Assembly (NCBI GenBank): GCA_017522125.1
Contig: JAFXAC010000063.1
Location: 1 to 52,630, forward strand
Direction of reading: 5' to 3'
Source: Clostridia bacterium
GTDB taxonomy: Bacteria > Bacillota > Clostridia > Oscillospirales > CAG-272
DNA length: 52,630 nt
The translations under genes and the position numbers were made by a program. Shown here piece after piece: positions 12,346 to 52,630 of this stretch. The notes below the pieces were generated by a model, which saw nothing but the letters and a program-made list of their open reading frames with translations, made no database searches and was not told where the DNA came from. Within the stretch, counting starts at the first letter, position 1. Each line of letters opens with the position of its first letter.

Positions 12346-12716
12346 CAGCCTACGGCTGAGTGAAAACGCTCCGCGTTTTCAAATGATGCATTTGCCCTTC
12401 GGGCAAATATGATATACGCTTCGCGTATGATGAATGATGTATTTGCCTTACGGCAAATATGAAGGAAAAAAGAGGTTGAAGCCGCAAGGCTTCAACCTCT
12501 TTTGTTTTATTGAATGCTTTTTGCGGTAGCAAAAAGCTTCCTTAATTTGCGCCTACGGCGCAACATCATTGGGCGCAAGCCCACATCATTTGCCGAAGGC
12601 AACATCATTTGCGCCCACGGCGCAACATCATTACGGCAAAGCCGTATTTCACCCGACGAAGTCGGATTTCACTGTGAAAACGCGAAGCGTTTTCACAAAA
12701 CGCGAAGCGTTTTCAC
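12346..12716. repeat. Modular mini-hairpin intergenic repeat, full two-armed copy
   Basis: Terminal gtgaaaacgc.../gcgttttca(c) hairpins, hairpin arrays with tgatg/catca and atttcac linkers, central terminator-like and gctttttgc...gcaaaaagc hairpins. Confidence 0.9.
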
Positions 12717-12796
12717 TTTTCTATTGACAAAGCGCTACAAAAAATGGTAATATAAATCATCACCACACGAAACCCGAAAGGAGAAAATCAAGTAGA

Positions 12797-15268
12797 ATGA
12801 AAAAGTTTTTATCCGCATTTTTGTCGGCACTTATGATCGCGTCCGCATTCGTCGGCGTAATAAGCTTTAGCGCGTCTGCCGCAAGCACGGTCGAGTTTGA
12901 CGTAGACACCTTCGCTCTCAAAAAGACGGGCACAAGCGCGAAGATAGATTTCCGCGCCAATCCCGCCGTTTACGAGGTCGGCGACGGCTACAACGTAATT
13001 TGGGTAACCACCTTCCGAGGCACGGGCTACATAAAGTACACCTACGAGGGCAAGGAATACACCGTTTACGATGAGAGAGACGGCATTATTTGCACCTACG
13101 AGGACGTACATAGCGTAAAAGTGCCCCGTGAGCATCTTTCAAACAACACCTACACCGTTTACTCGCAGGTCGTAACCGCAAACAACGCCTCGGGCGTTAC
13201 CTTCGGCGCGACCATTTCCAGCGGCGAGATACCATTCAAGGGCTACGACGGCTCGGGAACGGTAAACGTTCTTCAGATGACCGACACGCACGAGGGTCTT
13301 AACACCACGCAGGCGGTTGCCAGAGCGCACAAGGGCAAGGACGTCGACCTCGTCGTGTTCACGGGAGATATCGTAAACGCTCTCCCCAAGCGCGATAATA
13401 TGCTTGACAAATTCTTTCCCCTTATGGCTAACGCCACGGGCGGACGCTTCCCCATCGTTTACGGCCACGGCAACCACGAAACTCGCGGCTCGTACGGAAC
13501 TATGCTCCTTGAGTATTTCAAGACCGAGACGGGTCAGTTCTACTTTGATTTCGAGTACGGACCTCTTTACGGCGTAGTGCTTGACACCGCCGAGGAGGCA
13601 GGCGACTTCTACGAGGGATACGGCGGACTTGCGAACTGCAAGGAATACGTTACGGCACAGGGCGAGTGGCTCAAGAGCCTTGCTCCGCGCAAGGATCTCG
13701 CGTTCAGACTTGCCATCTACCATATTCCCCGCCTCAACAACCTTGCGGGTAAGACCGTAAACCTTTCCAAGAGTATGGGCCACCTCGGCTTGCAGCTTGG
13801 TATCTGCGGCCACGACCACACCTTCAGATTCGAGGCAAAGGGCAACAACGGACTCCAGTTCGAGCAGGTAGTGCTCGGTCAGAGTGCCGCCGGACTTTAC
13901 GAGTTTAACGGCAACAAGATAAAATACGTTGCAACCAGCTCAAGCGGCTCAATAAAGGCGAGCAAGACCTTTACCATTCAAAATAAATTCAGCGCGCCCA
14001 GCACTCCCAAGACCCCCGTTTTCGGCTTGAATCAGAAGAGCGAAACGAGAGCGGGCGGCTCTAACAAGGTAACGGGAGGCCCTACCGTTTTCGAAACGGG
14101 CGGCGATTATTACACTATCGTTTGGTCGACCTCGATGACGGGAGGCGCGTACGTCGAATATAAATTCGGCGGCAAGCAGTATCAGGTCTTTGACGAGGCG
14201 GGCGGATTTATCCGCACGACCGACACCGTCCACTCGGTAAAAGTGCCGAAGGCGCACCTTAACGGCAACACCTACCGCGTTGCGTGCTTCAATATGCGCG
14301 CAAATTCGGGCTACTCCTACTCGCGCGGAAGCGTGGCGGTGAGTGATTATTACAAGTTCGAAAAGAACACCGCAACGAATGAAATTCCCGTTCTCGTTTG
14401 CCCCGATATCGGCGTTAACACCGCAAATGACGCGCTGACGCGCCTTTCCGCCGCAGTTGCCGCACTCGGAAGCAAGCCCGCGATAATTTCGGTAAACGGC
14501 GACAGCGTTGCCGATATCGCCGAAATGAAGGGCATTGACGGCGTGCTTCAGGCTACCCACGCGGCGTCGGGCGGTACTCACCCCGTTGTTTACACGCGCG
14601 GCACGGCTGAGATGAAGGGCGATTACGCATCCCGCCTCGGCTTCTATCTGCACACCGAAACGGGCGAGCGCTACTACTCGTTCAGCACCGCAAGCCACAC
14701 CTTCATCGTGCTTGACAACGCCGCACTTTGCGAGCATTGCGCAAAGAACGCGGGCGAGCTTATTCTGCCCGAGCTTATCCGCGAAAAGCAGACCGAGTGG
14801 CTGAAATCGCTCCAGATCGCCGAGTCCAAGGACGTCGTTGTTATCTCCCACGAGGCAGCTATCGACAACGAATGGATGGAGATCCTTCGCGCGAAGGGCG
14901 CACCCCTCGTTATCAGCGCGTGCAGCGGCGGCTTCTCCGTTGACGACACGCAGGGCGTCGTAAACGTCGAAGCGGGCGGCTTCAAGGACGGAAAATATAC
15001 CGTTTCCCTGCTCACTATAAAGGGTGACAGCGTTAACGTTAAGGCTGCCGACAGCACGGGCGCCGTTGTTTACGAGCAGACTCTCTCGCTCGCTGACTTC
15101 CCGCGCGAGGTAACTCCCCCCGCGACCGAAGCACCCGCAACCACTACCGCGCCCTCTACCAAGGAAGGCGGATGCGGCTCGGCTATCGGCTTTGCTCTCG
15201 TTCCCGCAGTAATTGCTTCGGCAACGCTTTGCGTAAAGAGAAAAAAGAAGGAACACCCCCTTGGGTGA
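12797..15268 (+). CDS. Secreted metallophosphoesterase paralogue 4 with GGCGS-TM-basic tail
   Basis: Close tandem duplicate of 9862-12345 with the same motifs. Confidence 0.85.
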   Translation: MKKFLSAFLSALMIASAFVGVISFSASAASTVEFDVDTFALKKTGTSAKIDFRANPAVYEVGDGYNVIWVTTFRGTGYIKYTYEGKEYTVYDERDGIICTYEDVHSVKVPREHLSNNTYTVYSQVVTANNASGVTFGATISSGEIPFKGYDGSGTVNVLQMTDTHEGLNTTQAVARAHKGKDVDLVVFTGDIVNALPKRDNMLDKFFPLMANATGGRFPIVYGHGNHETRGSYGTMLLEYFKTETGQFYFDFEYGPLYGVVLDTAEEAGDFYEGYGGLANCKEYVTAQGEWLKSLAPRKDLAFRLAIYHIPRLNNLAGKTVNLSKSMGHLGLQLGICGHDHTFRFEAKGNNGLQFEQVVLGQSAAGLYEFNGNKIKYVATSSSGSIKASKTFTIQNKFSAPSTPKTPVFGLNQKSETRAGGSNKVTGGPTVFETGGDYYTIVWSTSMTGGAYVEYKFGGKQYQVFDEAGGFIRTTDTVHSVKVPKAHLNGNTYRVACFNMRANSGYSYSRGSVAVSDYYKFEKNTATNEIPVLVCPDIGVNTANDALTRLSAAVAALGSKPAIISVNGDSVADIAEMKGIDGVLQATHAASGGTHPVVYTRGTAEMKGDYASRLGFYLHTETGERYYSFSTASHTFIVLDNAALCEHCAKNAGELILPELIREKQTEWLKSLQIAESKDVVVISHEAAIDNEWMEILRAKGAPLVISACSGGFSVDDTQGVVNVEAGGFKDGKYTVSLLTIKGDSVNVKAADSTGAVVYEQTLSLADFPREVTPPATEAPATTTAPSTKEGGCGSAIGFALVPAVIASATLCVKRKKKEHPLG

Positions 15269-15298
15269 ATGAAGTTGGGGCTTTGCCGCAACTTTACC

Positions 15299-15595
15299 GT
15301 GAAAACGCTCCGCGTTTTCAAATGATGCATTTGCCCTTCGGGCAAATATGATATACGCTTCGCGTATGATGAATGATGTATTTGCCTTACGGCAAATATG
15401 AAGGAAAAAAGTGGTTGAAGCCGCGCTTCAACCACTTTTGTTTTTATGAATGCTTTTTGCTCTGCAAAAAGCTACCTTAACATTTTGCGCAAGCAAAATA
15501 TTTCACATTTGCCCTTGGGCAAATATTTCACACGGCAAAGCCGTATTTCACCCGACGAAGTCGGATTTCACCGTGAAAACGCGAAGCGTTTTCAC
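15299..15595. repeat. Modular mini-hairpin intergenic repeat, two-armed copy
   Basis: Left arm nearly identical to 12360-12480; right arm is an atttcac-linked hairpin array. Confidence 0.9.
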
Positions 15596-15604
15596 TTTTC
15601 CCTC

Positions 15605-15633
15605 TTGACAACCCATCTCCCTTGTGCTATAAT
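15605..15633 (+). promoter_or_regulatory. Sigma-A promoter of the pyr cluster
   Basis: TTGACA-17 bp-TATAAT with extended TG. Confidence 0.85.
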
Positions 15634-15705
15634 TGTAAAGATAAGATAGGGGAATGCGGGCAGACGCACGCCAAGCCCCAAAAAACAGGAACGGAGGACT
15701 TTATC

Positions 15706-16923
15706 ATGCCTGCAAAAATGCTTAAAAATTCAGCATTCGGCGCACAGCACGGCACTAAGGCGTCCTCCTTTGATTTTTCCTCTTATGAAGGTGTTGAAGT
15801 GTTTGAAAATTCCGATAGCGTTATTATTCTTCCCGGCTTTTGTGATGTGCATGTGCATTTCCGCGAGCCGGGTTTTTCCTATAAGGAAACCATAAAAAGC
15901 GGCTCTATGGCGGCGGCACGCGGCGGTTTTACCGACGTTTGCACGATGCCGAACCTGAACCCCGTCCCCGACTCTGCCGAAAACCTCGCGCTTCAGCGCG
16001 ACATCATCGCGCGTGACGCCGTGATAGGCGTTCACCCCTACGGCGCAATTACCGTAGGTCAGCGCGGCGAGGCTCTTGCCGACCTTGCGGGTATGGCGGG
16101 CGGCGTTATCGCCTTTTCCGACGACGGCAGGGGCGTGCAGAGCGACGAGGTGATGCTTGCCGCAATGAAGCAAGCCAAGGAGCTTGGCAAGATGATAGTC
16201 GCGCATTGCGAGGTCAATTCCCTTCTGCGCGGCGGCTATATCCACGACGGCGAGTACGCGCGCGCGCACGCTCACCGCGGCATCTGCTCCGAGAGCGAGT
16301 ACGCACAGATAGCGCGCGACCTTGAGCTTGCCGCAAAGGTCGGCTGTGCCTACCACGTCTGCCACGTTTCCGCAAAGGAGAGCGTTGAGCTGATACGTCA
16401 GGCAAAACGCACGGGCGTTGACGCGACTTGCGAGACCGCGCCGCACTACCTTGTGCTTGACGATAGCGATCTTAAAGAGGAAGGACGCTTTAAGATGAAC
16501 CCACCCCTGCGCTCCGCCGCCGACCGCGAGGCGCTTATCGAGGGAATAAAGGACGGCACGGTGGATATGATAGCCACCGACCACGCGCCCCACTCCGCCG
16601 AGGAGAAATCCCGCGGGCTTGAGGGAAGCGCGTTTGGCATTGTCGGGCTTGAAACGGCGTTCCCCGTGCTATACACGCACCTTGTGCGCGGCGGAGTGCT
16701 GACGCTTGACGAGCTTGCAGCACTTATGTGCCACAATCCGCGCCGCCGCTTCGGCATCGAGTGCGGCGACAGCTACAGCGTTTGGGATATCGGGGCGGAA
16801 TTTACCGTCAACCCCGACGAGTTCCTTACGATGGGCAGAGCAACGCCATTTACGGGCGATAAGCTCTTTGGCGTGTGCCAAAAAACGGTATATCAGGGCA
16901 AAACTGTCTGGGAAATAAAGTAA
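15706..16923 (+). CDS. pyrC: Dihydroorotase
   Basis: DVHVHFREPG, MPN, KMNPPLR, ATDHAPH; start placed at the ATG after the GGAGG RBS. Confidence 0.93.
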   Translation: MPAKMLKNSAFGAQHGTKASSFDFSSYEGVEVFENSDSVIILPGFCDVHVHFREPGFSYKETIKSGSMAAARGGFTDVCTMPNLNPVPDSAENLALQRDIIARDAVIGVHPYGAITVGQRGEALADLAGMAGGVIAFSDDGRGVQSDEVMLAAMKQAKELGKMIVAHCEVNSLLRGGYIHDGEYARAHAHRGICSESEYAQIARDLELAAKVGCAYHVCHVSAKESVELIRQAKRTGVDATCETAPHYLVLDDSDLKEEGRFKMNPPLRSAADREALIEGIKDGTVDMIATDHAPHSAEEKSRGLEGSAFGIVGLETAFPVLYTHLVRGGVLTLDELAALMCHNPRRRFGIECGDSYSVWDIGAEFTVNPDEFLTMGRATPFTGDKLFGVCQKTVYQGKTVWEIK

Positions 16924-16940
16924 AACGGAGGAGATAAAAA

Positions 16941-20114: not shown

Positions 20115-20115
20115 G

Positions 20116-20260
20116 GTGAAAACGGCTTTGCCGTTTTCACAGTGAAATCCACCTTCGGTGGGTGAAATCCGACTCCGTCGGGTGAAATACGCCTGCGGCG
20201 TGTGAAATATTTTGCTTCGCAAAATGTTAAGGTAGCTTTTTGCCGAAAGGCAAAAAGCTA
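20116..20260. repeat. Modular mini-hairpin repeat, single arm in reverse orientation, between carB and pyrK
   Basis: gtgaaat-linked hairpins ending in aaggtagctttttgcc...ggcaaaaagc. Confidence 0.9.
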
Positions 20261-20283
20261 TCCTATTAAATAAAGAGGAAAAA

Positions 20284-21018
20284 ATGAAACAATCCATATT
20301 CACGATAATTGAAAACGCGGCGCTGACGCGCGACGTTTGGCGTATGCGCCTGCGCGGCGACACGAGCGCGATAACGGCGGCGGGGCAGTTCGTCAACATT
20401 CAGCTTGACGGTCTTTTCCTGCGCCGCCCCATCTCCGTTTGCGACTGCGAGGGCGACGTGCTTACCCTCATTTACAAGGTCGTCGGCAAGGGCACGGCGC
20501 AAATGGCAAAAATGAGCGCGGGCGAGACCCTTGACGTTCTGACGGGACTCGGCAACGGCTACGACCTCTCCTGCGCGGGCGAGCATCCCTTGCTCATCGG
20601 CGGCGGCGTGGGCGTTCCCCCGCTTTATATGCTTGCAAAACAGCTCCGCGCGCGCGGACTTCGCGTGTCCGTAATACTCGGCTTTAACACCGAGAGCGAG
20701 ATATTCTGCCGCGAGGACTTTGCCGCCCTCGGCTGTGACGTTACGGTTACCACCGTTGACGGAAGCTACGGCACGAAGGGCTTCGTTACCGACGCTATGG
20801 GCGCGGATTACAGCTATTTCTACACCTGCGGCCCCGAGCCTATGCTCAAAGCGGTCTACCGCGCGTCGAAAACGTCGGGACAGATGAGCTTTGAGGAGCG
20901 CATGGGCTGCGGCTTTGGCGCGTGCATGGGCTGCTCCTGCAAGACGCTTACGGGCAACAAGCGCATCTGCAAGGAAGGCCCCGTTATGAGAAAGGAGGAG
21001 ATAATATGGGAAGACTGA
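20284..21018 (+). CDS. pyrK: Dihydroorotate dehydrogenase electron transfer subunit
   Basis: LRRPIS, GGGVG, CGPEPM, and the MGCGFGACMGC...C 2Fe-2S motif. Confidence 0.95.
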   Translation: MKQSIFTIIENAALTRDVWRMRLRGDTSAITAAGQFVNIQLDGLFLRRPISVCDCEGDVLTLIYKVVGKGTAQMAKMSAGETLDVLTGLGNGYDLSCAGEHPLLIGGGVGVPPLYMLAKQLRARGLRVSVILGFNTESEIFCREDFAALGCDVTVTTVDGSYGTKGFVTDAMGADYSYFYTCGPEPMLKAVYRASKTSGQMSFEERMGCGFGACMGCSCKTLTGNKRICKEGPVMRKEEIIWED

Positions 21019-22615: not shown

Positions 22616-22633
22616 TTTTCGGAGGATATAAAA

Positions 22634-24369: not shown

Positions 24370-24396
24370 AAAAAGCGGCGCAATGCGCCGCTTTTT
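24369..24396. terminator. Bidirectional intrinsic terminator
   Basis: aaaaagcggcgc-aat-gcgccgcttttt. Confidence 0.8.
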
Positions 24397-24563
24397 AAAT
24401 GATGCATTTGCCCTTCGGGCAAATATGATGCGCGCTTCGCGCATGATGCACGGCTTCGCCGTGTGATGTGTTTGCCTTGCGGCAAACGTTAAGGAAAAAA
24501 GCGGAAGAAACTCGCGTTTCTTCCGCTTTTATTTTATTTATGCTTTTTGCGAAGCAAAAAGCA
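24397..24563. repeat. Modular mini-hairpin repeat (left-arm type)
   Basis: aaatgatgcatttgcccttcgggcaaatatgatg... array, terminator-like hairpin, and gctttttgc..gcaaaaagc. Confidence 0.9.
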
Positions 24564-24610
24564 TTCGGTAAAATTACCATTCGGGAGCTTTTGAGTAATT
24601 ATATTCGTCA

Positions 24611-24713: not shown

Positions 24714-24724
24714 AGGATAGCGAG

Positions 24725-26020
24725 ATGATTGAAAGAAAACAATATTTGGATCAGCTCATTTCAAAAAAAGAAAACGGTCTGATCAAGGTGATCACGGGAA
24801 TCAGAAGATGCGGCAAATCCTATCTTTTATTTGAAATTTATCATAAGTATCTTAATTCCATAGGCGTTGACGATGAGCAAATAATCGAGCTTGCTCTTGA
24901 CGATGATGAAAATATCAGATACAGAAACCCCATAGAGCTTGGCGAGTATATTCGCAGTATCATTGCGGACAAGGATAAGACCTATTACATTTTCCTTGAC
25001 GAGATTCAAAAGGTCAAGACCGTGAAAAATCCTTATCTTGATGATGAAAACGAAACCGTCAGCTTCGTTGACGTGCTTCTTGGGCTGATGAAAAAGAAAA
25101 ATGCAGACGTGTACGTTACGGGCTCTAATTCCAAAATGCTCTCGTCGGATATTCTTAGTGAATTTCGCGGCAGGGGCGACGAGATCCGCGTTCATCCCTT
25201 GAGCTTTGCGGAGTTTTACGGAGCATATAAGGGAGATAAGCGCGATGCTTGGATAGAATATTATACCTACGGCGGTATGCCGTATGTGTGCAGTCTCGCT
25301 GAGCACAGGGCGAAAGCGCAATATTTAAGCGGTCTTTTCGATAATATCTATTTATCGGACATACTTGAGCGTCATAGCATTCGTGACAAGGGAATACTTG
25401 ACGAGCTTTTGAATTTGATCTCGTCCTCCGTTGGCTCGCTGACCAACCCCCGCAAAATAGCCGATACCTTTGCAAGCGTGGAGCGCATAAAGATAAGCCC
25501 TGATACCGTTTCTCAATATCTTGATTATTTTATTGATGCGTTTATGCTCAATAAAGCACAGCGCTTTGATATCAAGGGGAGAAAATATATCGGCTCGCCG
25601 CAAAAATATTATTTTTCCGATATCGGACTGCGTAATGCAAGGCTGAATTTCCGACAAACCGAGGAAAATCACATTATGGAAAATATAATATATAACGAGC
25701 TGATAATACGCGGCTTTACCGTTGACGTGGGCGTTGTAGAGTATAATTACAAGGATTCCGAGGGCAAAAGTAAAAAGACCAACCTCGAGGTAGATTTCGT
25801 TATTACCGACGGCGGCCGCAAGTATTATATTCAATCCGCACTTACGGTAGGTGAAGAGGACAAGAGATTGCAGGAGGTGCGCCCGTATGCAAGGATCGCG
25901 GACTCATTCAAGAAAATCGTTGTGGTAAAGGATAATATTATTCCTTGGCACGATGATAACGGGGTGCTTTATATAGGAATTGAAAAATTTCTGCTCGACC
26001 CCCGCGCGATGGAGCTGTGA
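24725..26020 (+). CDS. AAA_14/DUF4143 family ATP-binding protein (COG1373-like)
   Basis: Walker A GIRRCGKS, Walker B FLDEIQ, VTGSNS, KYYFSDIGLR, C-terminal EVDF..YIQS; more AT-rich than its neighbours. Confidence 0.88.
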   Translation: MIERKQYLDQLISKKENGLIKVITGIRRCGKSYLLFEIYHKYLNSIGVDDEQIIELALDDDENIRYRNPIELGEYIRSIIADKDKTYYIFLDEIQKVKTVKNPYLDDENETVSFVDVLLGLMKKKNADVYVTGSNSKMLSSDILSEFRGRGDEIRVHPLSFAEFYGAYKGDKRDAWIEYYTYGGMPYVCSLAEHRAKAQYLSGLFDNIYLSDILERHSIRDKGILDELLNLISSSVGSLTNPRKIADTFASVERIKISPDTVSQYLDYFIDAFMLNKAQRFDIKGRKYIGSPQKYYFSDIGLRNARLNFRQTEENHIMENIIYNELIIRGFTVDVGVVEYNYKDSEGKSKKTNLEVDFVITDGGRKYYIQSALTVGEEDKRLQEVRPYARIADSFKKIVVVKDNIIPWHDDNGVLYIGIEKFLLDPRAMEL

Positions 26021-26250
26021 AAACGCTCACGCGTTTTCAATGAAGTTGCGGCTTTGCCGCAGTGAAGCGCGCTCCGCGCGTGAAGCACGGCTTCGCCGTA
26101 TGAAGTGTTTGCCTTGCGGCAAACGAAAATGAAGCTTTTTGCCAAAAGGCAAAAAGCCACCTTAACTTTGCACTTTGCACTTTGCACTTTCTAAAACACC
26201 TGCGGTGTTTTAGAAAAAAGGTTGAAGCCGAGGCTTCAACCTTTTTGTTT
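26017..26250. repeat. Modular repeat with tgaag-linked hairpins and (ttgcact)3 heptamers
   Basis: Starts inside the TGA stop of the ATPase and ends in a ggttgaagcc..ggcttcaacc hairpin. Confidence 0.88.
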
Positions 26251-31887: not shown

Positions 31888-32027
31888 TGAAAACGCGGAG
31901 CGTTTTCAAATGATGCATTTGCCTTACGGCAAATATGATGCACGCTTCGCGTATGATGAATGATGCGTTTGCCCTTCGGGCAAACATGAAGGAAAAAAGC
32001 GGAAGAAACACAGTTTCTTCCGCTTTT
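31887..32027. repeat. Modular mini-hairpin repeat (left-arm type)
   Basis: Begins on the last base of the csaB TAG stop; same modules as the copy at 12360. Confidence 0.9.
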
Positions 32028-33102: not shown

Positions 33103-33481
33103 GGCGTGCCGCCGCGCACTCGGCGCGTGCCTTGCGTACCTTGCCGCCGCGCTTTTCTGCCTTCTTTTCGGCGCGGTCTACGAGCATTTCAGCCACGGCG
33201 TTTACTCAAACGCGATGGTGTACGCCTTCGCCTACCCCTTGTGCCTCGGCGTGCTTCCGTTTTTTGCCGCTTGCGCCTTTGGCAAAGAGCGCCTCGCCCC
33301 ATCGGGCGCGTCCGCACACCTGTGGGCGTACGGCGTTGCCACGCTGACGGTCGGCAGTATCCTTTCGGGCGTGCTTGAAATTTACGGAACGGACTCCGCC
33401 CTTCTCGCCGTTTACCCCATCGCGGGCGCGGCACTGCTTTTAGCGGCAGGAGTGGTGAAAACGCGAAGCGTTTTCAAATGA
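33080..33481 (+). CDS. Small four-TM membrane protein
   Basis: Hydrophobic segments, YEHFSHGVYS and EIYGT motifs; overlaps the previous gene. Confidence 0.7.
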   Translation: MFTSVTDKACRRALGACLAYLAAALFCLLFGAVYEHFSHGVYSNAMVYAFAYPLCLGVLPFFAACAFGKERLAPSGASAHLWAYGVATLTVGSILSGVLEIYGTDSALLAVYPIAGAALLLAAGVVKTRSVFK

Positions 33482-33771
33482 TGCATTTGCCCTTCGGGCA
33501 AATATGATGCACGCTTCGCGTATGATGAATGATGTATTTGCCCTTCGGGCAAACATGAAGGAAAAAAGTGGTTGAAGCACGGCTTCAACCACTTTTGTTT
33601 TTATAAACGCTTTTTGCCCTCGGCAAAAAGCTACCTTCATTTGCGCCTCGGCGCAACATCATTGGGCGTAAGCCCACATCATTTGCCGAAGGCAACATCA
33701 TTTGCGCCGCAGGCGCAACATCATTGTGAAAACGCCGCAGGCGTATTTCACTGAAACCGCTCCGCGTTTTC
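33455..33771. repeat. Modular mini-hairpin repeat, two-armed copy between convergent genes
   Basis: Left arm plus acatcatt-linked right arm; overlaps the 3' ends of both flanking genes. Confidence 0.9.
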
Positions 33772-34620
33772 CCCCCACACCCTCTCTGCGACCTCGGCGA
33801 TTTTCGCCGCCTCGTCGGGCGGGCAGGTCGTGAGCGTGCGCTTTTTCGGCTTGCCCCACACGTTGAAAAAGCGCGGGCCTATCCACTCGTTCACGCCGCA
33901 ATCCTCAAAGCAGCCGCGCAAAATAGACAGGCACGCCCTTTTCGGACGCATAAAAATGACCTTCATCGGGTGCTTTATCAGCGCGAAGATGACCTTCGGA
34001 TAATGCGCCGTTATGCCCGTAAAGCTGATGCCCGGGTGCGCCACGGCAAGTCCCGACGCGCCGCCGTACAGCGCGTAGAGCGAAAACATAAGATACCTTT
34101 TTGAATTCCCGTAGGCGTGGCTCGATTTTGTGCGCGTGGAGAAATCCACGTCGGAAAGATCGGCGCGGCAATAGTTGTGCGCGATGCTTCCGACCGCCAC
34201 CACCCTGCCGCCGCACGCGTCGATATGCGCCCTCAGCGCACGCGCAAGGCAATAGGGCGACACGAAATTTATCTGAAAAACGTTGTCGTAGCCCGTAGAG
34301 CATTTGTGGCGCGGGATATTGTACGCGCCCGCGTTTAGCACGAGCAGGTCAAGCGGCGCTTTTTTAAGCTCGTCTGCCGCCGCCGCGACCGAGGCTATAT
34401 CCTCCATATCCACGCGCAAATAGCTGACGGAGAGCGTGGGGAACTCGCCCACCAGCTCCGCGCCGAGCGCGCGCGACCTCTCGCCGTTGCGGTCAAGCAG
34501 TACAAGGCTTGCGCCGAGCGCGGCAAAATAACGGCACAGCGGTCTGCCAAGCCCGCCCGTCGCGCCGCTTATGGCAACTCTCTTGCCCGAAAGGGACTGC
34601 GTTTTTACACCCTTTATCAT
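33748..34620 (-). CDS. SDR family oxidoreductase
   Basis: SGATGGLG, LNAG, YGNSK catalytic motif, HPG. Confidence 0.88.
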   Translation of the reverse strand: MIKGVKTQSLSGKRVAISGATGGLGRPLCRYFAALGASLVLLDRNGERSRALGAELVGEFPTLSVSYLRVDMEDIASVAAAADELKKAPLDLLVLNAGAYNIPRHKCSTGYDNVFQINFVSPYCLARALRAHIDACGGRVVAVGSIAHNYCRADLSDVDFSTRTKSSHAYGNSKRYLMFSLYALYGGASGLAVAHPGISFTGITAHYPKVIFALIKHPMKVIFMRPKRACLSILRGCFEDCGVNEWIGPRFFNVWGKPKKRTLTTCPPDEAAKIAEVAERVWGENAERFQ

Positions 34621-37593: not shown

Positions 37594-37740
37594 GCTTTTT
37601 GCATAGCAAAAAGCCACCTTAACATTTTGCGCAAGCAAAATATTTCACATTTGCCGTAAGGCAAATATTTCACACGGCGAAGCCGTATTTCACCCATTCC
37701 GCAAGGAATGGATTTCACTGAAAACACCGCAGGTGTTTTC
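37594..37740. repeat. Modular mini-hairpin repeat (right-arm type)
   Basis: gctttttgc..gcaaaaagccacctt followed by atttcac-linked hairpins. Confidence 0.9.
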
Positions 37741-41460: not shown

Positions 41461-41982
41461 ATGGATTTTTTGGAAATTTCCCCGCGCGAGCTTGAATGCT
41501 CCAACGCCTTTAATATGATAGGCAAGGAGTGGTTTCTCATCTGCGCCGCCGATGCGGAGCGCGAGTGCGGAGCAAACGCAATGACGGCAAGCTGGGGGTA
41601 TCTCGGCAATATGTGGAACAAGCCCTCGGCGGTGTGCTTTATAAGACCGCAACGCTACACCTACCCCTTGGCGGAGCGCGCCGAGCGCGTGTCGCTGTGC
41701 TTTTTCGGTGAGGGCGAGCGCGAGATGTTTTCGTACTTCGGCACGAAAAGCGGCAAGGACGGCGACAAGGCAGCCGCGTGCGGATTGCACTACGACTATA
41801 TCGACGGCGTGCCGTATATCAGAGAGGCAAAGACCGTGCTTATCTGCCGCAAGCTCTACGTTGACGACCTGCGCGAGGAATGCTTTACCGACAAGAGCAT
41901 AATTTCCTCGTTCTACAAGGCGGGCGACTACCACAGGATCTACGCCTGCGAGATAGAAAAAGTGCTAAGTGCAAAGTGCTAA
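41461..41982 (+). CDS. Flavin reductase family protein
   Basis: NAMTASWG, IRPQRYT, GTKSGKD.DK, YHRIY. Confidence 0.88.
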   Translation: MDFLEISPRELECSNAFNMIGKEWFLICAADAERECGANAMTASWGYLGNMWNKPSAVCFIRPQRYTYPLAERAERVSLCFFGEGEREMFSYFGTKSGKDGDKAAACGLHYDYIDGVPYIREAKTVLICRKLYVDDLREECFTDKSIISSFYKAGDYHRIYACEIEKVLSAKC

Positions 41983-42186
41983 GTGCAAAGTTAAGGAAAA
42001 AAGTGGTTGAAGCTAAAGCTTCAACCACTTTTATTTTTATAAATTGATTTTTTCTACGAAAAACCTTAGTGTAGGTGCTTATTAATGCATTTTAAATTAA
42101 ATGAAAATTTCCGAGCTAAGCGAGGAAATTGTCCTTAACTTTGCACTTTGCACTTTGCACTGTAAAAACGGCTTTGCCGTTTTTAC
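41960..42186. repeat. Modular repeat with inverted heptamer arrays at both ends
   Basis: (aagtgc[t/a])4 on the left, (ttgcact)3 on the right, central ggttgaagc..gcttcaacc hairpin, terminal gtaaaaacggc..gccgtttttac. Confidence 0.88.
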
Positions 42187-45840: not shown

Positions 45841-45974
45841 ATGCTTTTTGCAAAGCAAAAAGCTACCTTCATTTGCGCCAACGGCGCAACATCATTGGGC
45901 GTAAGCCCACATCATTTGCCGAAGGCAACATCATTACGGCGTAGCCGTACATCATTTGCGCCGTAGGCGCAACT
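45841..45974. repeat. Modular mini-hairpin repeat (acatcatt-linked arm)
   Basis: Five hairpins separated by acatcatt; abuts the stop codon of the AraC gene. Confidence 0.9.
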
Positions 45975-46823
45975 TTACTTATCAAACACCGGCAGCATCG
46001 ACGCCGCCTCGTTCTTCTTTTCGGAGCGTCGGCGGTACTCGCTCGGCGTCATTCCCTTGTATCGCGCAAACGCGCGGTTGAAGGTGCGGAGCGTCGAAAA
46101 GCCCACCTCGCCCGCTATCTGCGTTATCGGCGTGTCCTCGCGCCTGAGCAGACGGCACGCGTGCGAGATGCGAAGCGAATTTATATAATCGTTAAAGCTA
46201 ACGCCGAGCTTGCCCGAAAACAGATGCGAAATGTAGTATTTGCTAAGGTGAAGCTCGTTTTGCAGTACGTCGAGGGACAGCGGCTCGCAATAATGCGCCG
46301 AGCAATAGCCGATTATCTCGCGCGTGGCGCGTGAGTCCACGTTCGACGGCGATAAAAAGTCGAAAAGCGGGAAAATATGCCCGAAAAACGCAAGCAGATA
46401 GCCCTTTATAAGCTGGTCGCGCATAGGTATTTCCTCGTCCTTGCGAAGAGATGCAAGCGCGCGCGCGATGCTTGCGATCTCCTCGTTTTCCATAGCTCCC
46501 TTGATAACGGAGCTTTTAGGAAAGCCGCACTCAAAGCTTATTTCGGGAATGAGGTCGGGGTTTATTATAAATAGGTAATAATCCTCGTCCGCCTCGCTGA
46601 CGTAGGAATGAACCTGATTCGGAAAGGTAACGAAAACGTCGCCCGCCGTAAGCGTGTATTCGTCGCTGTCCGTGATGGCGGTGGTCCTGCCCTTTAGCAT
46701 ACAGACTATCTCAACGTGATAGTGCAGATGAAGGAGCGCGTCAAGCCGACGCTTGCCGCCCTTGCTGTCTATGGAAATAAAATCCGTAGTCTTTTTTTCA
46801 AAAATCGGTGGTACTTGTAACAT
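45975..46823 (-). CDS. AraC family transcriptional regulator
   Basis: Cupin HLHYHVE; C-terminal IAGEVGFSTLRTFNRAF...GMTPSEYR. Confidence 0.92.
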   Translation of the reverse strand: MLQVPPIFEKKTTDFISIDSKGGKRRLDALLHLHYHVEIVCMLKGRTTAITDSDEYTLTAGDVFVTFPNQVHSYVSEADEDYYLFIINPDLIPEISFECGFPKSSVIKGAMENEEIASIARALASLRKDEEIPMRDQLIKGYLLAFFGHIFPLFDFLSPSNVDSRATREIIGYCSAHYCEPLSLDVLQNELHLSKYYISHLFSGKLGVSFNDYINSLRISHACRLLRREDTPITQIAGEVGFSTLRTFNRAFARYKGMTPSEYRRRSEKKNEAASMLPVFDK

Positions 46824-48467: not shown

Positions 48468-49213
48468 TTAAAACAACTCCGTTGTTTTAATAAGTTCAAA
48501 GTGCAAAGTGCAAAGTGCAAAGTTGAGGTAGCTTTTTGCCAAAAGGCAAAAAGCATTCCTATTGAAAACGGAATAGCGCACTCTTTAGCGTCATCCCGCA
48601 GACGCGGCGCAATGTTCTGCGACGCGGCAAGTGGATCTCGCAAAAATTCCGCAGAATTTTTGCGCTTGATGTTTGCACCAAACTTTCCCTTTCGGACTCT
48701 CGCCGCGTGCTACGGCTACACGAAAAAGCGACGGTGTGCGTTTGCCTCCCTGCGGAGGGAGGGGGACCGCGAAGCGGTGGAAGGAGAGTGCGAGCATAAT
48801 GGAACAAGTGCTTGCCGTATCAAGACGCAGGCTCCTTCAGTCTCGCGTCCGCTCGACAGCTCCCTCTCGGAGGGAGCCATATATAGCAATCGCCTTTTGA
48901 TAGTTCGTAGCCGTATTTTTGGTGCTAAACCCTAATAAATCGGTCAGTGCAAACATCAAGCGCCGTTTTTCTGCGGAAAAACGGCGAGATTCGCTCGCTC
49001 CGCCGCGAAGCAGCTTGGCGGAGCTTCGGAATGACGCAAGTGGGTGCGCTGTTCGCTTTCTCAATAGGAATGCTTTTTGCCTTTTGGCAAAAAGCTACCT
49101 TAACATTTTGCGCAAGCAAAATATTTCACATTTCGCAAAGCGAAATATTTCACACGCCGTAGGCGTATTTCACCCGACGAAGTCGGATTTCACTGAAAAC
49201 GCTCCGCGTTTTC
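48468..49213. repeat. 745-bp nested composite repeat upstream of dnaA
   Basis: Heptamer arm, about 150-bp inverted repeat (48527-48680 vs 48947-49100), central ctccct...agggag palindromic unit, atttcac-linked arm. Confidence 0.88.
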
Positions 49214-50900: not shown

Positions 50901-50939
50901 GCGTGCGCGTGAGAGAAATTCAGAAAGGAAGCTAACGTA

Positions 50940-52088
50940 ATGAAGATAATTTTCAACCGTTTGGAAACCATAAATACCATTTCTCCCCTGCTTTGCGCTG
51001 TCGGAAGGTCAAATATCCCCGCAGTTGAGTGCATTCTCATCGAGGCTAAAAAGGGAGAGGCTCTGACGCTTACCACCTTCGACCTTGAAAAGGGCGTAAG
51101 ATGCAGCTGCAACGCCACCGTTCTTGAAGATGGCTTTTATTGCATAAACGCACAAAAGCTGTTCCAAACCCTTAAGGTAATGGAAGGCGAGGAGGTCACG
51201 CTGACCGTAAACGAAAAGCTTGAAACTACCATTTCCTCGGGTAGGTCAACTTATAAAATGTCCGCCCTGCGCGGCGAGGATTTCCCGCAGATTCCGAGCC
51301 TTAAAACGCAGATGGGCTTTGAGCTTTCGTCCTCGCTCCTTCGCAGAACGATAGGAAAGATAAGCTTTGCAATGGCGCAGAACGATCAGCGTCAGGTGCT
51401 TAACGGTGCGTTTTTCCGCATCCGCGACGGTGAGATGCTTGCGGTCGCCTGCGACACCTTTAAGCTTGCAAAATGCGTTTGCACCGCAAATCTTATCAAC
51501 CGCAACAGCGACGGCGAGGCGCTCAGATACTCGTACATCGTTCCCAACAAGACGATAAACGAGCTTTACCGTATGCTCCCCGACGACGAGGAAGAAAACG
51601 TGACGATATACATCAGCCGCAAAACGATGGTATATCATTTTGACGGACTTATATTCTTTACGAAGATAATAGAGGGCGAATACATTGATTTTGAGCGTAT
51701 AATCCTTACAAATCACAAGATAATCGCCTACGCCGATAAGGATAAGCTGCTTGCCGCGCTTGAGCGTGCCGCCGTCGTTACCGAGGAAAAGATAGCGGGC
51801 AGCAACCGCACGCCGCTGAAATTCAGCCTTGAGGGCGACGTTCTGAAGCTGACCGCAAATTCGAGCGCGGGAAGCTCCTACGACGAGCTTGAGGTCGAGC
51901 ATACGGGCGACGATATCCTTATCGCGTTCAACAACCGCTTCCTTATCGACTCCGTCCGCGCCTGCTCCACCGCGCGCGTGAAGATCGAGCTTTCGACTCC
52001 GCTTTACAGCATCAATATAAAGCCCGTCGACCCCGAGGACGAGAGCGAGGACCTCTTCTTCCTCTTGCCCGTGAGAATGAAAAGCTGA
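50940..52088 (+). CDS. dnaN: DNA polymerase III beta clamp
   Basis: Follows dnaA; DFPQIP, RQVLNG, D.FKLA, IEGEYIDFERI, IAFN.RFLID, LLPVR. Confidence 0.95.
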   Translation: MKIIFNRLETINTISPLLCAVGRSNIPAVECILIEAKKGEALTLTTFDLEKGVRCSCNATVLEDGFYCINAQKLFQTLKVMEGEEVTLTVNEKLETTISSGRSTYKMSALRGEDFPQIPSLKTQMGFELSSSLLRRTIGKISFAMAQNDQRQVLNGAFFRIRDGEMLAVACDTFKLAKCVCTANLINRNSDGEALRYSYIVPNKTINELYRMLPDDEEENVTIYISRKTMVYHFDGLIFFTKIIEGEYIDFERIILTNHKIIAYADKDKLLAALERAAVVTEEKIAGSNRTPLKFSLEGDVLKLTANSSAGSSYDELEVEHTGDDILIAFNNRFLIDSVRACSTARVKIELSTPLYSINIKPVDPEDESEDLFFLLPVRMKS

Positions 52089-52630
52089 GTAAAAACACCT
52101 TTGGTGTTTTTACAGTGATATTCGCCTTACGGCGAGTGATATTCAACCTTGCGGTTGAGTGATATTCGCCCTTCGAGCGAGTGATATGTTTGCCTTTCGG
52201 CAAACGTTAAGGTAGCTTTTTGCTTCGCAAAAAGCTAATGAATAATGAATAATGAATAATATAGGTGGCTTTTTGCGCCGCAAAAAGCATTCCTATTGAG
52301 AAAAAAGTGTACTTTTAGCATATTGCTATGCGTTAAGATGGCGGGAACGGCGAACCCTTTAGCGTCATTCCGAAGGCGTTTAAAAAAAGGCGGGAAAGTG
52401 GCAATTTTTAGCGTATTGCTATGCGTTAAGGTGGCGGGAACGACGTACTCTTTAGCGTCATTCCGAAGTCGCGGAGCGTTGTTCCGCGCCGCGACGAGCG
52501 AATCTCGCCGTTTTTCCGCAGAAAAACGGCGCCCTATGTTCGCACCCAACCGATTTATTAGGGATTTAGCACTAAAAATCACGGCTGCGAACTATTAAAA
52601 GGCAATTGCAAACATAAGGCTCTCCCTCAG
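52089..52630. repeat. Composite repeat downstream of dnaN, running to the window edge
   Basis: gtgatattc-linked hairpins, (taatgaa)3, internal duplication of about 63 bp (52313-52375 and 52405-52468), and an inverted copy of 48871-49100. Confidence 0.88.

Follow-up and report, generated by a model that had tools for sequence, protein, structure and literature searches.

The intergenic spaces of this contig raise the question of what the strings of very short hairpins that recur in them are, and in which form, DNA or RNA, their pairing is kept. The window, that is, the whole stretch of 52,630 nucleotides analysed here, had been said in a preliminary description to hold a modular hairpin repeat matching no family that could be named. 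Sequence reading together with a perfect-stem hairpin finder located arrays of near-perfect mini-hairpins, with the modules claimed for them, at 12/12 of the starts given there (12346, 15299, 20116, 24397, 26017, 31887, 33455, 37594, 41960, 45841, 48468 and 52089); four borders shift by one nucleotide and one by two, and the copy listed at 24397 spans 24370-24564. An arm runs from a terminal hairpin T, (G/T)T(G/A)AAAAC..GTTTT(C/T)A(C), through a hairpin array on a fixed linker of 6-7 nt (ATTTCAC, (A)CATCAT(T), ATATCAC, CTTCA, or their complements) and an AAGG/CCTT junction to an inner hairpin A or B. The B hairpin is GCTTTTTGC-N-GCAAAAAGC, and A occurs as A1, GGTTGAAGC-N-GCTTCAACC, and as a second variant absent from the earlier account, A2, GGAAGAAAC-N-GTTTCTTCC. 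Some arms consist of heptamers only, without hairpins. A full element consists of two such arms that meet head to head at A and B, and the inverted orientation claimed for these elements was found in 10/10, the GTGAAAT/ATGATG-type arm being on the left and the ATTTCAC/CATCAT-type arm on the right. The best terminator-like sites of the window are A hairpins, and A is a predicted bidirectional intrinsic terminator.

The family had in part been named before, since the GTGAAAT-linked arrays match the Rfam Gut-1 RNA, RF01706. Five matches in the window are over the cut-off and there are nine in all at E<=1, while the source genome has 62, of which 40 are over the cut-off. Gut-1 RNA was described by Weinberg et al. 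in 2010, and a passage of that paper rates the motif 'Y' for being an RNA (PMC2864571). The Rfam orientation is the strand opposite to the ATTTCAC strand, which bears the c(GNA)g loops. The copies in the window, with their Gut-1 matches and strands, are as follows.

12346..12713, full element: small hairpin and T, arm linked by ATGATG with TTC/TTAC loops, TGAAGGAAA junction, predicted terminator hairpin A1 (12468-12503, the top terminator-like site), B (12516-12537), CCTTAAT junction, arm linked first by CATCAT and further on by ATTTCAC, with GNA/GNRA loops, and a partly duplicated T; weak Gut-1 match at 12641-12718 (-), 31 bits.
15300..15595, full element: T, ATGATG arm, A1 (15407-15439), B, CCTTAAC junction, ATTTCAC arm, T; Gut-1 match at 15520-15597 (-), 56.3 bits. 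A consensus TTGACA-17-TATAAT promoter follows at 15605-15633.
20116..20260, solo arm in the pyr operon between carB and pyrK: T, beginning 1 nt past the carB stop codon, four GTGAAAT-linked hairpins, GTTAAGG junction, B; Gut-1 match at 20140-20213 (+), 78.3 bits.
24370..24564, arm: terminator-like hairpin directly after pyrB, ATGATG-type array, GTTAAGGAAA junction, predicted terminator A2 (24497-24530), B; sub-threshold Gut-1 match at 24399-24474 (+), 36.6 bits.
26018..26246, arm: T, whose TGA closes the AAA_14/DUF4143 reading frame (d=-4), GTGAAG-linked hairpins, B, CCTTAAC, (TTTGCAC)x3 heptamer array, T-like hairpin, A1 (26215-26246); sub-threshold Gut-1 match at 26038-26111 (+), 43.5 bits.
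31888..32025, an arm in which T overlaps the GT4/pyruvyl-transferase stop codon (d=-1) and is followed by hairpins on the ATGATG linker, the TGAAGGAAA junction and an A2 hairpin.
33456..33775, full element that runs from T and an ATGATG arm over A1 and B to a CCTTCAT junction, a CATCAT arm and a T that is degenerate.
37594..37740, solo arm that opens with B; the CACCTTAAC junction leads to four hairpins on the ATTTCAC linker, with the loops GCAA, GTAA, GAA and GCAA, and to T, which is directly followed by the ribosome-binding site and ATG of a radical-SAM gene; Gut-1 match at 37637-37720 (-), 70.4 bits.
41960..42186, degenerate full element between convergent genes: AAGTGCW heptamers instead of hairpins, then the TTAAGGAAA junction, A1 with an odd spacer after it, the CCTTAAC junction, (TTTGCAC)x3 and T.
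45843..45972, solo arm without T, adjoining a minus-strand gene at its stop codon: B, the TACCTTCAT junction and five hairpins on the CATCAT linker; weak Gut-1 match at 45904-45981 (-), 27.1 bits.
48468..49213, composite: on the left a T-like hairpin, (AAAGTGC)x4 heptamers, GAGGTA junction and B; a second repeat family nested at 48557-49062; on the right, at 49072-49213, an arm not listed as a start before, with B, the TACCTTAAC junction, four hairpins on the ATTTCAC linker and T. Its two ends, B+ATTCCTATTGA, make up an inverted repeat of 50 nt (94%); Gut-1 match at 49118-49195 (-), 65.4 bits.
52089..52295, arm: T, beginning directly past a stop codon (d=0), hairpins on the GTGATAT linker, the GTTAAGGTA junction, B, an (AATGAAT)x3 heptamer run and a further B; the second repeat family occupies 52296-52630, up to the contig end; Gut-1 match at 52113-52192 (+), 53.6 bits.

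Hairpin clusters of at least three hairpins number 164 in the source genome and 20 in a Markov-shuffled genome, which places the pattern well beyond chance. Eight arm strands gave folding z-scores of -5.4 to -9.8, as DNA or as RNA, and 0/200 shuffles folded equally well. The claim that the repeat saturates intergenic space is apt for the window, where 15 of the 65 family clusters of the genome lie in 2.9% of its bases, but not genome-wide, where clusters make up 3.6% of the non-coding DNA. A module of the family was found at 16/198 contig ends as against 116/6026 (1.9%) of all 300-nt windows. Matches to RF01706 occur in 19/24 genomes of the same genus (0 to 73 per genome), in 8/16 genomes of other families of the order and in only 3/150 genomes drawn across the phylum. 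The metagenome-assembled genomes that bear the family are labelled Acutalibacteraceae, Ruminococcaceae, Oscillospiraceae or simply 'Clostridia bacterium'.

As had been claimed, the stems vary while pairing is kept: 98.0% of 344 cells pair compared to 80.8% after shuffling, and 64 cells are changed on both sides where 18.3 were expected. Neither value was reached in 500 shuffles, and slid controls gave 28-49%. The loop claim likewise held, GNA triloops being present in 56/90 folded hairpins of ATTTCAC-linked slots and GCAA/GTAA in 5, with C-G as the closing pair in 89/90. In a hand tally of the ATTTCAC and CATCAT rows, the commonest loop, GAA, varies 31 times at its middle base, 8 times at its first and once at its last. 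The same strand-specific bias was seen in other genomes, where 204 slots at 74 loci have 91 GNA loops and 170 C-G closing pairs. None of these loop counts are independent, because the copies share ancestry. The bias is limited to the short array hairpins, the long T, A and B stems having arbitrary loops, and the GNA hairpins are always on opposite strands in the two arms. According to a passage of PMC13037366, GCGNAGC-type hairpins of DNA greatly exceed the corresponding RNA hairpins in stability, and a passage of PMC3201870 makes their stability dependent on the closing pair. The c(GNA)g pattern on the ATTTCAC strand thus fits DNA mini-hairpins better than RNA loops; the evidence for single-stranded DNA is of this one kind, loop chemistry.

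The presence/absence check at orthologous loci revealed that the family is missing at two sites in more distant congeners, with spacers of 9-30 nt there. The spacer between carB and pyrK is 9-24 nt in eight congeners, and the arm is there only in the source genome and its relatives G023, G007 and G014. These same four have a filled site between the TPK and radical-SAM genes (the 37594..37740 site), while in G045, G049 and G047 this spacer is empty and 30 nt long. Since the evidence is presence/absence between species with 15-25% flank divergence, movement is inferred and not directly seen; every compared window site is occupied in all four closest species, with no sign of very recent movement. 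Between close species the internal arrays are reshuffled, and the change is by whole units: the carB-pyrK arrays differ in units in flanks that are 90-97% identical. At the 41960..42186 site the outer borders of the element are common to the four species, while linker family, A variant and A-B order differ, and in G014, G023 and G007 the hairpin arrays there use other linker families, A coming before B or after it.

No target-site duplication, transposase or autonomous copy was found in the source genome, at the compared sites, or at the multi-array loci and Y1 genes of relatives. The suggested RAYT/Y1 transposase did not find support, because a PF01797 match is absent from the source genome (92% complete) and strong Y1 matches occur in only 5/13 relatives with at least 20 Gut-1 matches. 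Three Y1 genes inspected in relatives are ordinary IS200-type genes with end hairpins of their own and were rejected as the transposase of the family. Nor were genes found enclosed by the arms, whether in the source genome or at the 29 multi-array loci inspected in other genomes. The DUF559 and GIY-YIG mini-genes suggested earlier occur at the same hot-spot spacers in relatives, beside other repeats and not beside the hairpin-array family.

REP sequences of E. coli block 3'-5' exonucleases. The arrays may act as RNA in the Gut-1 orientation: transcripts of the upstream gene would contain them as cis-acting hairpin strings, in the 3'-UTR or between cistrons, and there the arrays would likewise block such exonucleases, adjust termination at the stop codon that T contains and finish with the terminator A; the repeat would then be a portable 3'-end cassette, hence its dispersal. 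We consider this unlikely, but much of the placement agrees with it. Convergent gaps (133 in the genome) contain 24 of the 65 clusters, tandem gaps (1032) contain 28 and divergent gaps (149) just 1. T lies at or over a stop codon of the upstream gene in 29/67 cases: T itself supplies the stop codon (TGA/TAA), at its positions 2-4, in 13, T is within -3..+3 of it in 8, and the upstream frame ends 13-30 nt inside the element in 8. A is a strong terminator-like hairpin, the stems covary, the published rating is 'Y', and the arm geometry of the full elements means that a gene transcript entering one reads the Gut-1 strand first. In 17 solo arms of tandem contexts the Gut-1 strand is the mRNA sense 11 times, a count against the DNA-hairpin reading, but 6 arms face the opposite way. 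As RNA this strand has two further pairs per hairpin, A-U and U.G, which the linker contributes, and it folds 9-13 kcal/mol better than the other strand in 3/4 arms; these pairs, however, never vary and therefore prove nothing. Also against an RNA role, UUC, UAC, UGC and UUGC are not known stable RNA loops and the conserved G..A is on the other strand, non-Watson-Crick pairs are rare (6/562 in the slots of the source genome), hairpin-free heptamer arms exist, and copy number ranges so widely within one genus. Of 47 distinct one-mismatch stems, moreover, G.T falls 23 times on the ATTTCAC strand and 11 times on its complement, where it would be G.U in Gut-1, a weak bias (about p=0.06).

It is less probable still that the host uses the arrays as a single-stranded DNA platform, on which c(GNA)g mini-hairpin strings, borne by opposite strands in the inverted pair, would exclude SSB and be read at gene ends by a primase, helicase loader, topoisomerase or similar, e.g. 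for replication restart or supercoiling relief between convergent genes, in the manner of ssi sites or gyrase-binding BIMEs. The loop and closing-pair bias, its confinement to the short array hairpins, the strand arrangement and the enrichment between convergent genes favor this, and a passage of PMC13037366 describes mini-hairpins with poor SSB binding in N4 vRNAP promoters, at the ssiA/RepB' primase site and in the origin of phage G4. However, the partner protein is only putative, copy number differs wildly between sister species with 5/24 same-genus genomes lacking a match, which is odd for a core function, and orthologous sites are empty in congeners. With gene direction taken as a proxy for replication direction, the GNA strand of solo arms would be on the leading-strand template 11 times as against 6 the other way, the wrong side for lagging-strand priming. 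Finally, the structure could be unselected, the palindromes and loops being a by-product of how units are made or copied, e.g. by snap-back synthesis or intrastrand palindrome correction, and the family neutral junk tolerated behind genes. The stems are indeed nearly mismatch-free (152 perfect slots to 16 with one mismatch; in a larger set, 371 perfect slots to those 47 stems), and since the 152 slots use only 36 recurring stem types, much of the alignment covariation is different units in one slot; whole-unit variation and heptamer-only arrays agree with this. Nevertheless, it is very improbable, because the middle of the loop is free while G, A and the C-G closing pair are fixed across distant lineages, and because 14 pairs of stem types differ by exactly one base pair changed on both sides.

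The most likely explanation, to which we give a probability of about 0.6, is that the family is a modular and non-autonomous repeat, dispersed over the intergenic DNA of a gut Clostridia lineage, with Gut-1 RNA as one of its modules and not a free-standing sRNA gene. That the family is gene-less, structure-constrained and dispersed, as proposed at the outset, is borne out by the stem covariation, the strand-specific loop bias and the absence at orthologous sites of more distant congeners. Going by that presence/absence pattern, copies would have entered the spacers downstream of genes recently in the history of the lineage and been retained where they are of little harm or of use, namely, behind genes and between convergent genes. 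They often replace the extreme gene end, and because of TGA/TAA in the T stem and TGA in the linkers the interrupted reading frame closes at once. The arrays then change fast, by gain and loss of units between identical linkers, exchange with other copies and flipping of the centre. Since perfect small hairpins with c(GNA)g loops are kept on the strand running from the centre outwards to T, the results suggest that what is selected is the mini-hairpin which that strand forms as single-stranded DNA and which could be read by a putative enzyme or binding protein other than a Y1/RAYT transposase. For the host, neighbouring genes would gain stop codons, a terminator and stable 3' hairpins. A dispersed repeat of this description is of the same kind as the REP/BIME, BOX and Correia elements.

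All twelve loci that the preliminary description listed in the window are hairpin runs that obey one grammar, as was seen when each was read and then parsed by a script (perfect stems of at least 5 bp, loops of 3 to 5 nt). An arm begins at the element end nearest the gene with a terminal hairpin, T, of the form (G/T)T(G/A)AAAAC-core-GTTTT(C/T)A(C), and continues through an array of 2 to 5 small hairpins with stems of 5 to 8 bp and loops of 3 to 4 nt. These are joined by a linker of 6 to 7 nt that is identical throughout any one arm; the linker families on one strand are ATTTCAC, CATCAT, ATATCAC, ATATCGC, and CTTCAC, with their complements on the other arm. A junction, (G)TTAAGG(T/A)A or TGAAGGAAA, then leads to an inner hairpin of one of two kinds, B (GCTTTTTGC-N-GCAAAAAGC) or A (AAAG(T/C)GGTTGAAGC.. 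or AAAGCGGAAGAAAC.., preceded by a run of A and followed by a run of T). Elements are 150 to 370 nt long, and those in the window include the following.

Elements of the repeat family in the window
12346-12713, full element, head-to-head arms around A and B
15300-15595, full element, head-to-head arms around A and B
33456-33775, full element, head-to-head arms around A and B
20116 (start), solo arm
24370 (start), solo arm
26018 (start), solo arm
31888 (start), solo arm
37594 (start), solo arm
45843 (start), solo arm
52089 (start), solo arm
48468-49213, composite, two arms flanking a nested copy of another repeat

The proposal that complete copies have two arms in inverted orientation was confirmed in G000, the genome to which the window belongs, where all ten full elements are inverted arm pairs with the GTGAAAT-type array on the left and the ATTTCAC-type array on the right. 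Inverted pairing was also seen at 26 of 29 multi-array loci of other genomes; outside the genus it takes a simpler form (26 of the 29), in which a GTGAAAT array is followed directly by an ATTTCAC array without T, A, or B. G000 (1.82 Mb in 99 contigs, 51% G+C, 92% complete) holds 164 clusters of at least three hairpins compared to 20 in a Markov-shuffled copy, and when four arms were folded on both strands, as DNA and as RNA, z was -5.4 to -9.8 and none of 200 shuffles was as good. By a strict census there are 65 family clusters, which make up 10.4 kb or 3.6% of the non-coding DNA of G000, and 15 of them fall in the window, which has 2.9% of the bases. Thus, the statement that the repeat saturates intergenic space is apt for the window but not for the genome. 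A module lies within 300 nt of 16 of the 198 contig ends compared to 1.9% of all 300-nt windows, and because contig ends are enriched in modules the copy number in G000 is probably an undercount.

It had been stated that the repeat does not match any family that could be named. This does not hold for the GTGAAAT-linked arrays, which are the Gut-1 RNA of Rfam (RF01706), a model of three hairpins spaced by GUGAAAU; the arms with other linkers score under the Rfam cut-off. With the gathering score of 50 bits, an Rfam scan gave five matches over the cut-off in the window (53.6 to 78.3 bits), while the other-linker arms gave four weaker ones of 27 to 44 bits.

RF01706 matches over the cut-off in the window (Rfam scan)
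15520-15597, minus strand, Gut-1 match
20140-20213, plus strand, Gut-1 match
37637-37720, minus strand, Gut-1 match
49118-49195, minus strand, Gut-1 match
52113-52192, plus strand, Gut-1 match

Other Rfam families matched in the window (HrrF, sraA, Leu leader, and ar35) were rejected as chance-level, with E of 0.02 to 0.76. As listed by Weinberg et al. (2010, Genome Biol 11:R31; PMC2864571), Gut-1 is a non-coding RNA rated 'Y', probable, with the taxon 'human gut only', and comes from environmental sequences only and from no cultivated organism. Our literature search found Gut-1 or RF01706 mentioned only in that paper and in a 2026 machine-learning paper, and the Rfam type of RF01706 is 'Gene; sRNA'. 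The copies described here differ from this picture in several respects. There are 62 matches, 40 of them over the cut-off, in this 1.8 Mb genome; the GTGAAAT linker is one interchangeable family among ATGATG, GTGATAT, GCGATAT, GTGAAG, and bare heptamers; the array is embedded in a larger T/A/B element and faces either way with respect to genes; loops and mismatches favor the opposite strand; and, in contrast to 'human gut only', ruminant and chicken gut MAGs also carry the motif. Evidence against Gut-1 being a free-standing sRNA gene comes from how many copies there are, from their occurrence in both orientations, and from sites within operons and across stop codons. We propose instead, with a probability of about 0.6, that the family is a modular intergenic repeat, dispersed and unable to move autonomously, that belongs with the REP/BIME/BOX kind and has Gut-1 as one of its modules, that it lies behind genes to which it would bring stop codons and a predicted terminator, that its arrays turn over fast, and that the constraint on its hairpins points to single-stranded DNA of the ATTTCAC strand.

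The placement of the elements was examined with 1413 genes predicted in G000 by a self-trained ORF caller. Convergent gaps (133) hold 24 of the 65 clusters, tandem gaps (1032) hold 28, and divergent gaps (149) hold one. A census of 67 T hairpins with a following linker showed that in 13 of them positions 2-4 of T are the TGA or TAA that ends the upstream reading frame, in 8 more T is within -3 to +3 nt of the stop codon, and in 8 the upstream frame extends 13-30 nt into the element, some of these frames being closed by the first linker's TGA. Within T the stem partner tracks the stop codon, being ..TGA..TCA.. in one case and ..TAA..TTA.. in the other. The A hairpins at 12468-12503, 15407-15439, 24497-24530, and 26215-26246 were among the five best-ranked terminator-like sites in a scan of window positions 12000-31999, and module A has the pattern of an intrinsic terminator, in which a T run comes after a stem containing G+C; in A the stem is also preceded by a run of A. 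By this consensus match, module A is a predicted two-way intrinsic terminator. Since T is at stop codons and A is terminator-like, a stop codon, a hairpin string, and a predicted two-way terminator come with the element, which would settle behind genes and bring these with it. REP sequences near stop codons have been reported to cause ribosome stalling. Because of the order of the arms in the ten full elements, a transcript from either side encounters the Gut-1 strand first. Solo arms have no preferred orientation, with 19 one way and 19 the other, and in tandem contexts the Gut-1 strand is the mRNA sense in 11 and the other strand in 6, which is not significant.

At window positions 3014-15268 there are four tandem Metallophos (calcineurin-like phosphoesterase) paralogues of 1276, 933, 827, and 823 aa, the first two of which have C-terminal dockerin domains. 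Each of the last two is followed by a full element and a near-consensus promoter, and therefore the element was probably duplicated together with the gene. The two 382-aa genes at the window ends were considered as paralogues, and this was rejected because tblastn gave no cross match.

The constraint on the hairpins was examined in an alignment of 25 Gut-1 copies of G000 with 344 cells. Paired cells were 98.0% as compared to 80.8% after shuffling, both sides had changed in 64 cells where 18.3 were expected, and none of 500 shuffles matched either value; with slid partners pairing was 28-49%. The 152 perfect slots are filled by only 36 stem types and units move between slots, so part of this 'covariation' is due to different units being aligned together. 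Fourteen pairs of stem types differ by exactly one base pair with both sides changed. The loops had been described as mostly GNA or GNRA, closed by C-G on one strand, and this was borne out in the ATTTCAC arrays, where 56 of 90 folded slots have GNA and 5 have GNRA loops (GAA 35, GTA 10, GCA 6, GGA 5, GCAA 4, GTAA 1), 89 of 90 have a C-G closing pair, and only 3 of 90 loops are of the complementary kind. The CATCAT arrays (68 slots) have 43 GNA and 11 GNRA loops (GAA 33, GTAA 8, GCA 6, GTA 3, GCAA 3, GGA 1), with C-G closing in 67. Among one-step neighbors of GAA in these two kinds of arrays the change falls on the middle base in 31 instances, on the first base in 8, and on the last in one, counted over non-independent copies. 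In 204 slots from 74 loci of other genomes there are 91 GNA loops (GAA 51, GCA 24, GTA 11, GGA 5) and C-G closing in 170. The loops of T, A, and B are arbitrary. A weak signal in the same direction comes from 47 distinct one-mismatch stems, in which G.T is on the ATTTCAC strand in 23 and on the other strand in 11. The ATTTCAC strand is, in both arms, the strand running from the center to T.

DNA hairpins of the sequence GCGNAGC or GCGNNAGC are described as extraordinarily stable and their RNA versions as much less so (Hirao and co-workers; review PMC13037366). Natural mini-hairpins named in that review are at the phage G4 origin, the ssiA site of the RepB' primase, and the N4 virion-RNA-polymerase promoters, and mini-hairpins are described there as poorly bound by SSB; the stability of d(GNA) loops is reported to depend on the closing pair (PMC3201870). 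The array hairpins resemble GCGNAGC-type DNA mini-hairpins in being C-G closed with GNA or GNNA loops. They differ in that the published ones are single and belong to phage or plasmid origins and promoters, whereas here 4 to 5 are in tandem, in inverted pairs, and in tens of chromosomal copies. Taken with this published chemistry, the conserved loops and closing pairs match DNA mini-hairpins that would form on the strand opposite to that of the Rfam model.

An alternative is that the element acts as RNA, as a cis-acting 3'-end cassette in the Gut-1 orientation. In RNA form the Gut-1 strand gains two pairs per hairpin, one A-U and one U.G, out of the ends of the linkers, and it folds better by 9-13 kcal/mol in three of four arms; on the other hand, these extra pairs never vary and, being invariant, do not carry evidence. 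We consider this reading rather unlikely. A bolder reading, which we regard as unlikely, is that Gut-1 is not an RNA but a strand-symmetric DNA device, with tandem c(GNA)g mini-hairpins on the strand whose 3' end faces the outer border in both arms, and with an enzyme or binding protein common to many gut Clostridia and perhaps to other phyla. Such a geometry would be expected if the element, or the chromosome at gene ends, were handled as single-stranded DNA with nuclease- and SSB-resistant strings of hairpins, and the handler might be a new hairpin-guided mobilization enzyme or a priming/restart platform. That the arrays are a single-stranded DNA platform used by the host is in our view more doubtful still, and that the hairpins are purely a by-product of mechanism is very improbable.

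Orthologous sites were compared among congeners to examine the repeat as an insertion. The arm at 20116-20260 is between carB and pyrK inside the pyrimidine operon. In eight congeners the distance between these genes is 9-24 nt, and G000 and the three genomes closest to it (G023, G007, and G014) alone have the arm, with flanks that are 90-97% identical; other congeners have unrelated inserts there, such as DUF559-like or GIY-YIG-like small reading frames and other hairpin repeats. The arm at 37594-37740, upstream of a radical-SAM gene, is present in the same four genomes, while the site is a 30-nt spacer in G045, G049, and G047 and has other inserts in four further genomes. Judged from this presence and absence, arms appear to have been inserted at both the carB-pyrK and the radical-SAM site. 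No target-site duplication is visible at either filled/empty pair, in a comparison with empty sites of species that are 15-22% diverged and whose flanks are only 78-85% identical. Every window site that was compared is occupied in all four close species, and thus no very recent movement is seen. Short assembled contigs from the libraries of two RNA runs, in which DNA may be present, link carB to T (19922-20146) and the last hairpin plus B to pyrK (20218-20438); contigs of this kind do not reveal transcription, strand, ends, or level.

The carB-pyrK and TPK-radical-SAM spacers are genus-wide insertion hot spots (loci L011, L012, L016, L022, L014, L017, L019, L291, and L299), which in some species have DUF559-like or GIY-YIG-like reading frames, named by eye, and in other species MITE-like inserts with CCTCCCTC/CCTTCCCC hairpins at their boundaries. 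A second repeat family, unrelated to the hairpin elements, is at window positions 48557-49062 and 52296-52630 (the contig end) and at loci L009, L010, L008, and L040. It is about 500-800 nt long without a long ORF, has inner inverted ends of the form GCGTCATYCCGMAG, holds nested CTCCCTC..GAGGGAG hairpins, gave 33 partial blastn matches in G000, and matched no Rfam family in the Rfam scan. Its flanking hairpins are both B in the window and both T in G023, a placement that looks like targeting of the hairpin elements. At 24580-26020, where G+C is 44% compared to about 55% around it, a gene for an AAA_14/DUF4143 ATPase lies between two arms of the same orientation; since the G007 copy of this gene and the pyr operon are on separate contigs, the gene is possibly an insertion of its own. 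A 521-aa reading frame without a Pfam match is at 39830-41395, and in this region the DNA of the three closest relatives differs, with about 3.3 kb in G014 as against 1.7 kb in G000.

The content of the arrays changes fast. At 41960-42186, between convergent genes, the outer borders of the element are common to four species and the content differs. G000 has bare AAGTGCW/TTTGCAC heptamers where hairpins are expected, G014 and G007 have ATGATG/CATCAT-type arrays, and G023 has a GTGAAAT array with a nested second repeat; the type of A (1 or 2) and the order, A-B or B-A, vary by species as well. Between carB and pyrK, T and B are the same in four species and the units between them differ. Heptamer-only arms such as T-(AGTGAAT)5-B and B-(ATTATTC)4-6-T are found elsewhere in G000. 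In such tracts, tandem heptamers (AAAGTGC, AATGAAT, AGTGAAT, or ATTATTC, in 3-6 copies) occupy the slot of the hairpin array between B and T, and they look like linkers without their hairpins.

Heptamer tracts in the window and elsewhere in G000
26166-26195, window
41960-41990, window
42140-42163, window
48494-48522, window
52238-52262, window
8980-9013, contig C6 of G000
35184-35222, contig C98 of G000
36339-36367, contig C98 of G000
37537-37575, contig C98 of G000

On contig C98 a heptamer arm is directly before the ribosome-binding site at three consecutive genes. The array differences observed are what would be expected if units were gained and lost between identical linkers, if copies exchanged with one another, and if the center flipped between inverted arms. 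A joint in DNA contigs of X1 and X3 that skips 20139-20202 (three units) was rejected as an array-length polymorphism because its shorter side is only 22 letters.

In a draw of 40 relatives, Gut-1 matches were found in 19 of 24 genomes of the same genus and in 8 of 16 genomes of the order's other families, with 0-73 per genome, and of 150 other genomes drawn evenly from the whole phylum only 3 had matches. A pattern scan of contigs from one genome per species gave at least 118 loci. Among the matches listed, 55 have hairpins in both stretches between linkers, the labels are Clostridia, Eubacteriales, Acutalibacteraceae, Ruminococcaceae, Oscillospiraceae, Candidatus Coproplasma, and Christensenella sp. 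MAGs, and the hosts are roe deer, goat, cattle, buffalo, sheep, yak, chicken, and human. Also among these matches, GTGAAAT-hairpin arrays occur in one MAG labelled Akkermansia sp. and one labelled Bacteroidaceae, which are labels only and may reflect mis-binning; in the 'Akkermansia' MAG five of six matches are on a single contig. At locus L052 of this MAG (2150-3420), a unit of about 480 nt, made of a GTGAAAT-linked hairpin array and then a CGAGAT-linked one, is present in three tandem copies in DNA of 55% G+C; this points to either a relative of the family in another phylum or a mis-binned contig. In IMG/VR viral contigs only 7 of 119 pattern matches have hairpins in both slots, and blastn against plasmid and phage collections gave no match to a full element.

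The preliminary description had proposed a search for genes enclosed by the arms, a RAYT/Y1 transposase among them. Neither an enclosed gene nor a cognate transposase was found: G000, which is 92% complete, has no PF01797 match, and no inverted arm pair encloses a gene in G000 or at the 29 multi-array loci of other genomes, so that no gene-carrying, autonomous copy was seen in this set. A candidate enclosed gene in the long gap after position 7049 of contig C40 was an ordinary gene. Strong Y1 matches are present in 7 of the 40 relatives. Five of these belong to the group with 20 or more Gut-1 matches (13 genomes, counting G000) and two to the 28 genomes with fewer, a mild association in which 8 of the 13 high-copy genomes do not have a strong Y1 match. 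The three Y1 loci inspected are IS200-type, each with its own conserved end hairpin, and only the Y1 copy in G014 has an arm nearby, on one side, beside a convergent gene. Y1/RAYT was therefore rejected as the cognate enzyme, being absent from G000 and IS200-type in the relatives inspected. Upstream of an IS200-type Y1 gene in G014 (locus L318, contig C155, about 230-560) there are four spaced copies of a hairpin, CAACTTTA-GACCC.agt.GGGTC-CGAAGTT, which may be a REP-like partner of the IS200 itself.

If the proposal of a modular repeat is correct, RF01706, an orphan 'sRNA from the human gut' since 2010, is to be re-read as one interchangeable part of a mosaic repeat that is present tens of times per genome in uncultured Clostridia of human, ruminant, and chicken guts. 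It would then be a natural test case of whether 'covariation' in a multi-copy motif implies RNA: the stems covary, yet both the chemistry of the loops and the bias of the mismatches favor DNA and the opposite strand. For annotation, the element supplies the stop codon of roughly two dozen genes in G000 and gives predicted terminators to neighboring genes, and MAG assemblies break at its copies. A partner enzyme, if one exists, would be a new way to move or read hairpin DNA.

The family has the short extragenic palindromes, high copy number, and inverted doublets of the REP/REPIN pattern; a cognate Y1 (HUH) transposase flanked by the repeats, as in REP/REPIN with RAYT, was not found. Terminal inverted repeats shared with an autonomous, transposase-encoding IS, as in a MITE, were not found; the arms are inverted in grammar (T, linkers, and junction), with sides that often differ in linker family. 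Since the testable REP/RAYT feature is lacking and MITE status is not established, we do not file the family under either, and our literature search, of limited reach, found no published REP-type repeat for Oscillospiraceae. REP and BIME sequences are short extragenic palindromes in tens to hundreds of copies, arranged as mosaics with fixed linker motifs and concentrated behind genes and between convergent genes; their hairpins are thought to be handled as single strands, and their copy number varies among relatives. By description, the present family is like REP/BIME/REPIN in its palindrome mosaics, fixed linkers, placement behind genes and between convergent genes, and variable copy number. 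Unlike in the alternating BIMEs, the hairpins in one arm all point the same way, and unlike in REP/BIME generally, the stems are perfect and of 5-8 bp with GNA loops, the terminal hairpin has a stop codon, and RAYT was not found. BOX of Streptococcus pneumoniae and Correia of Neisseria are modular, gene-less intergenic repeats that can overlap gene ends and carry or affect terminators and promoters, BOX being built of constant end modules that enclose a varying number of an inner unit (boxA-boxB(n)-boxC), and to our knowledge neither has a dedicated transposase. Compared by description only, the family is like them in being modular and gene-less, with fixed ends, a variable inner unit, predicted terminators, and overlaps with the ends of genes, and differs from them in that its unit is a 7-nt linker plus a hairpin of 13-18 nt, that two inverted arms surround the terminator, and that linker families are swapped between copies.
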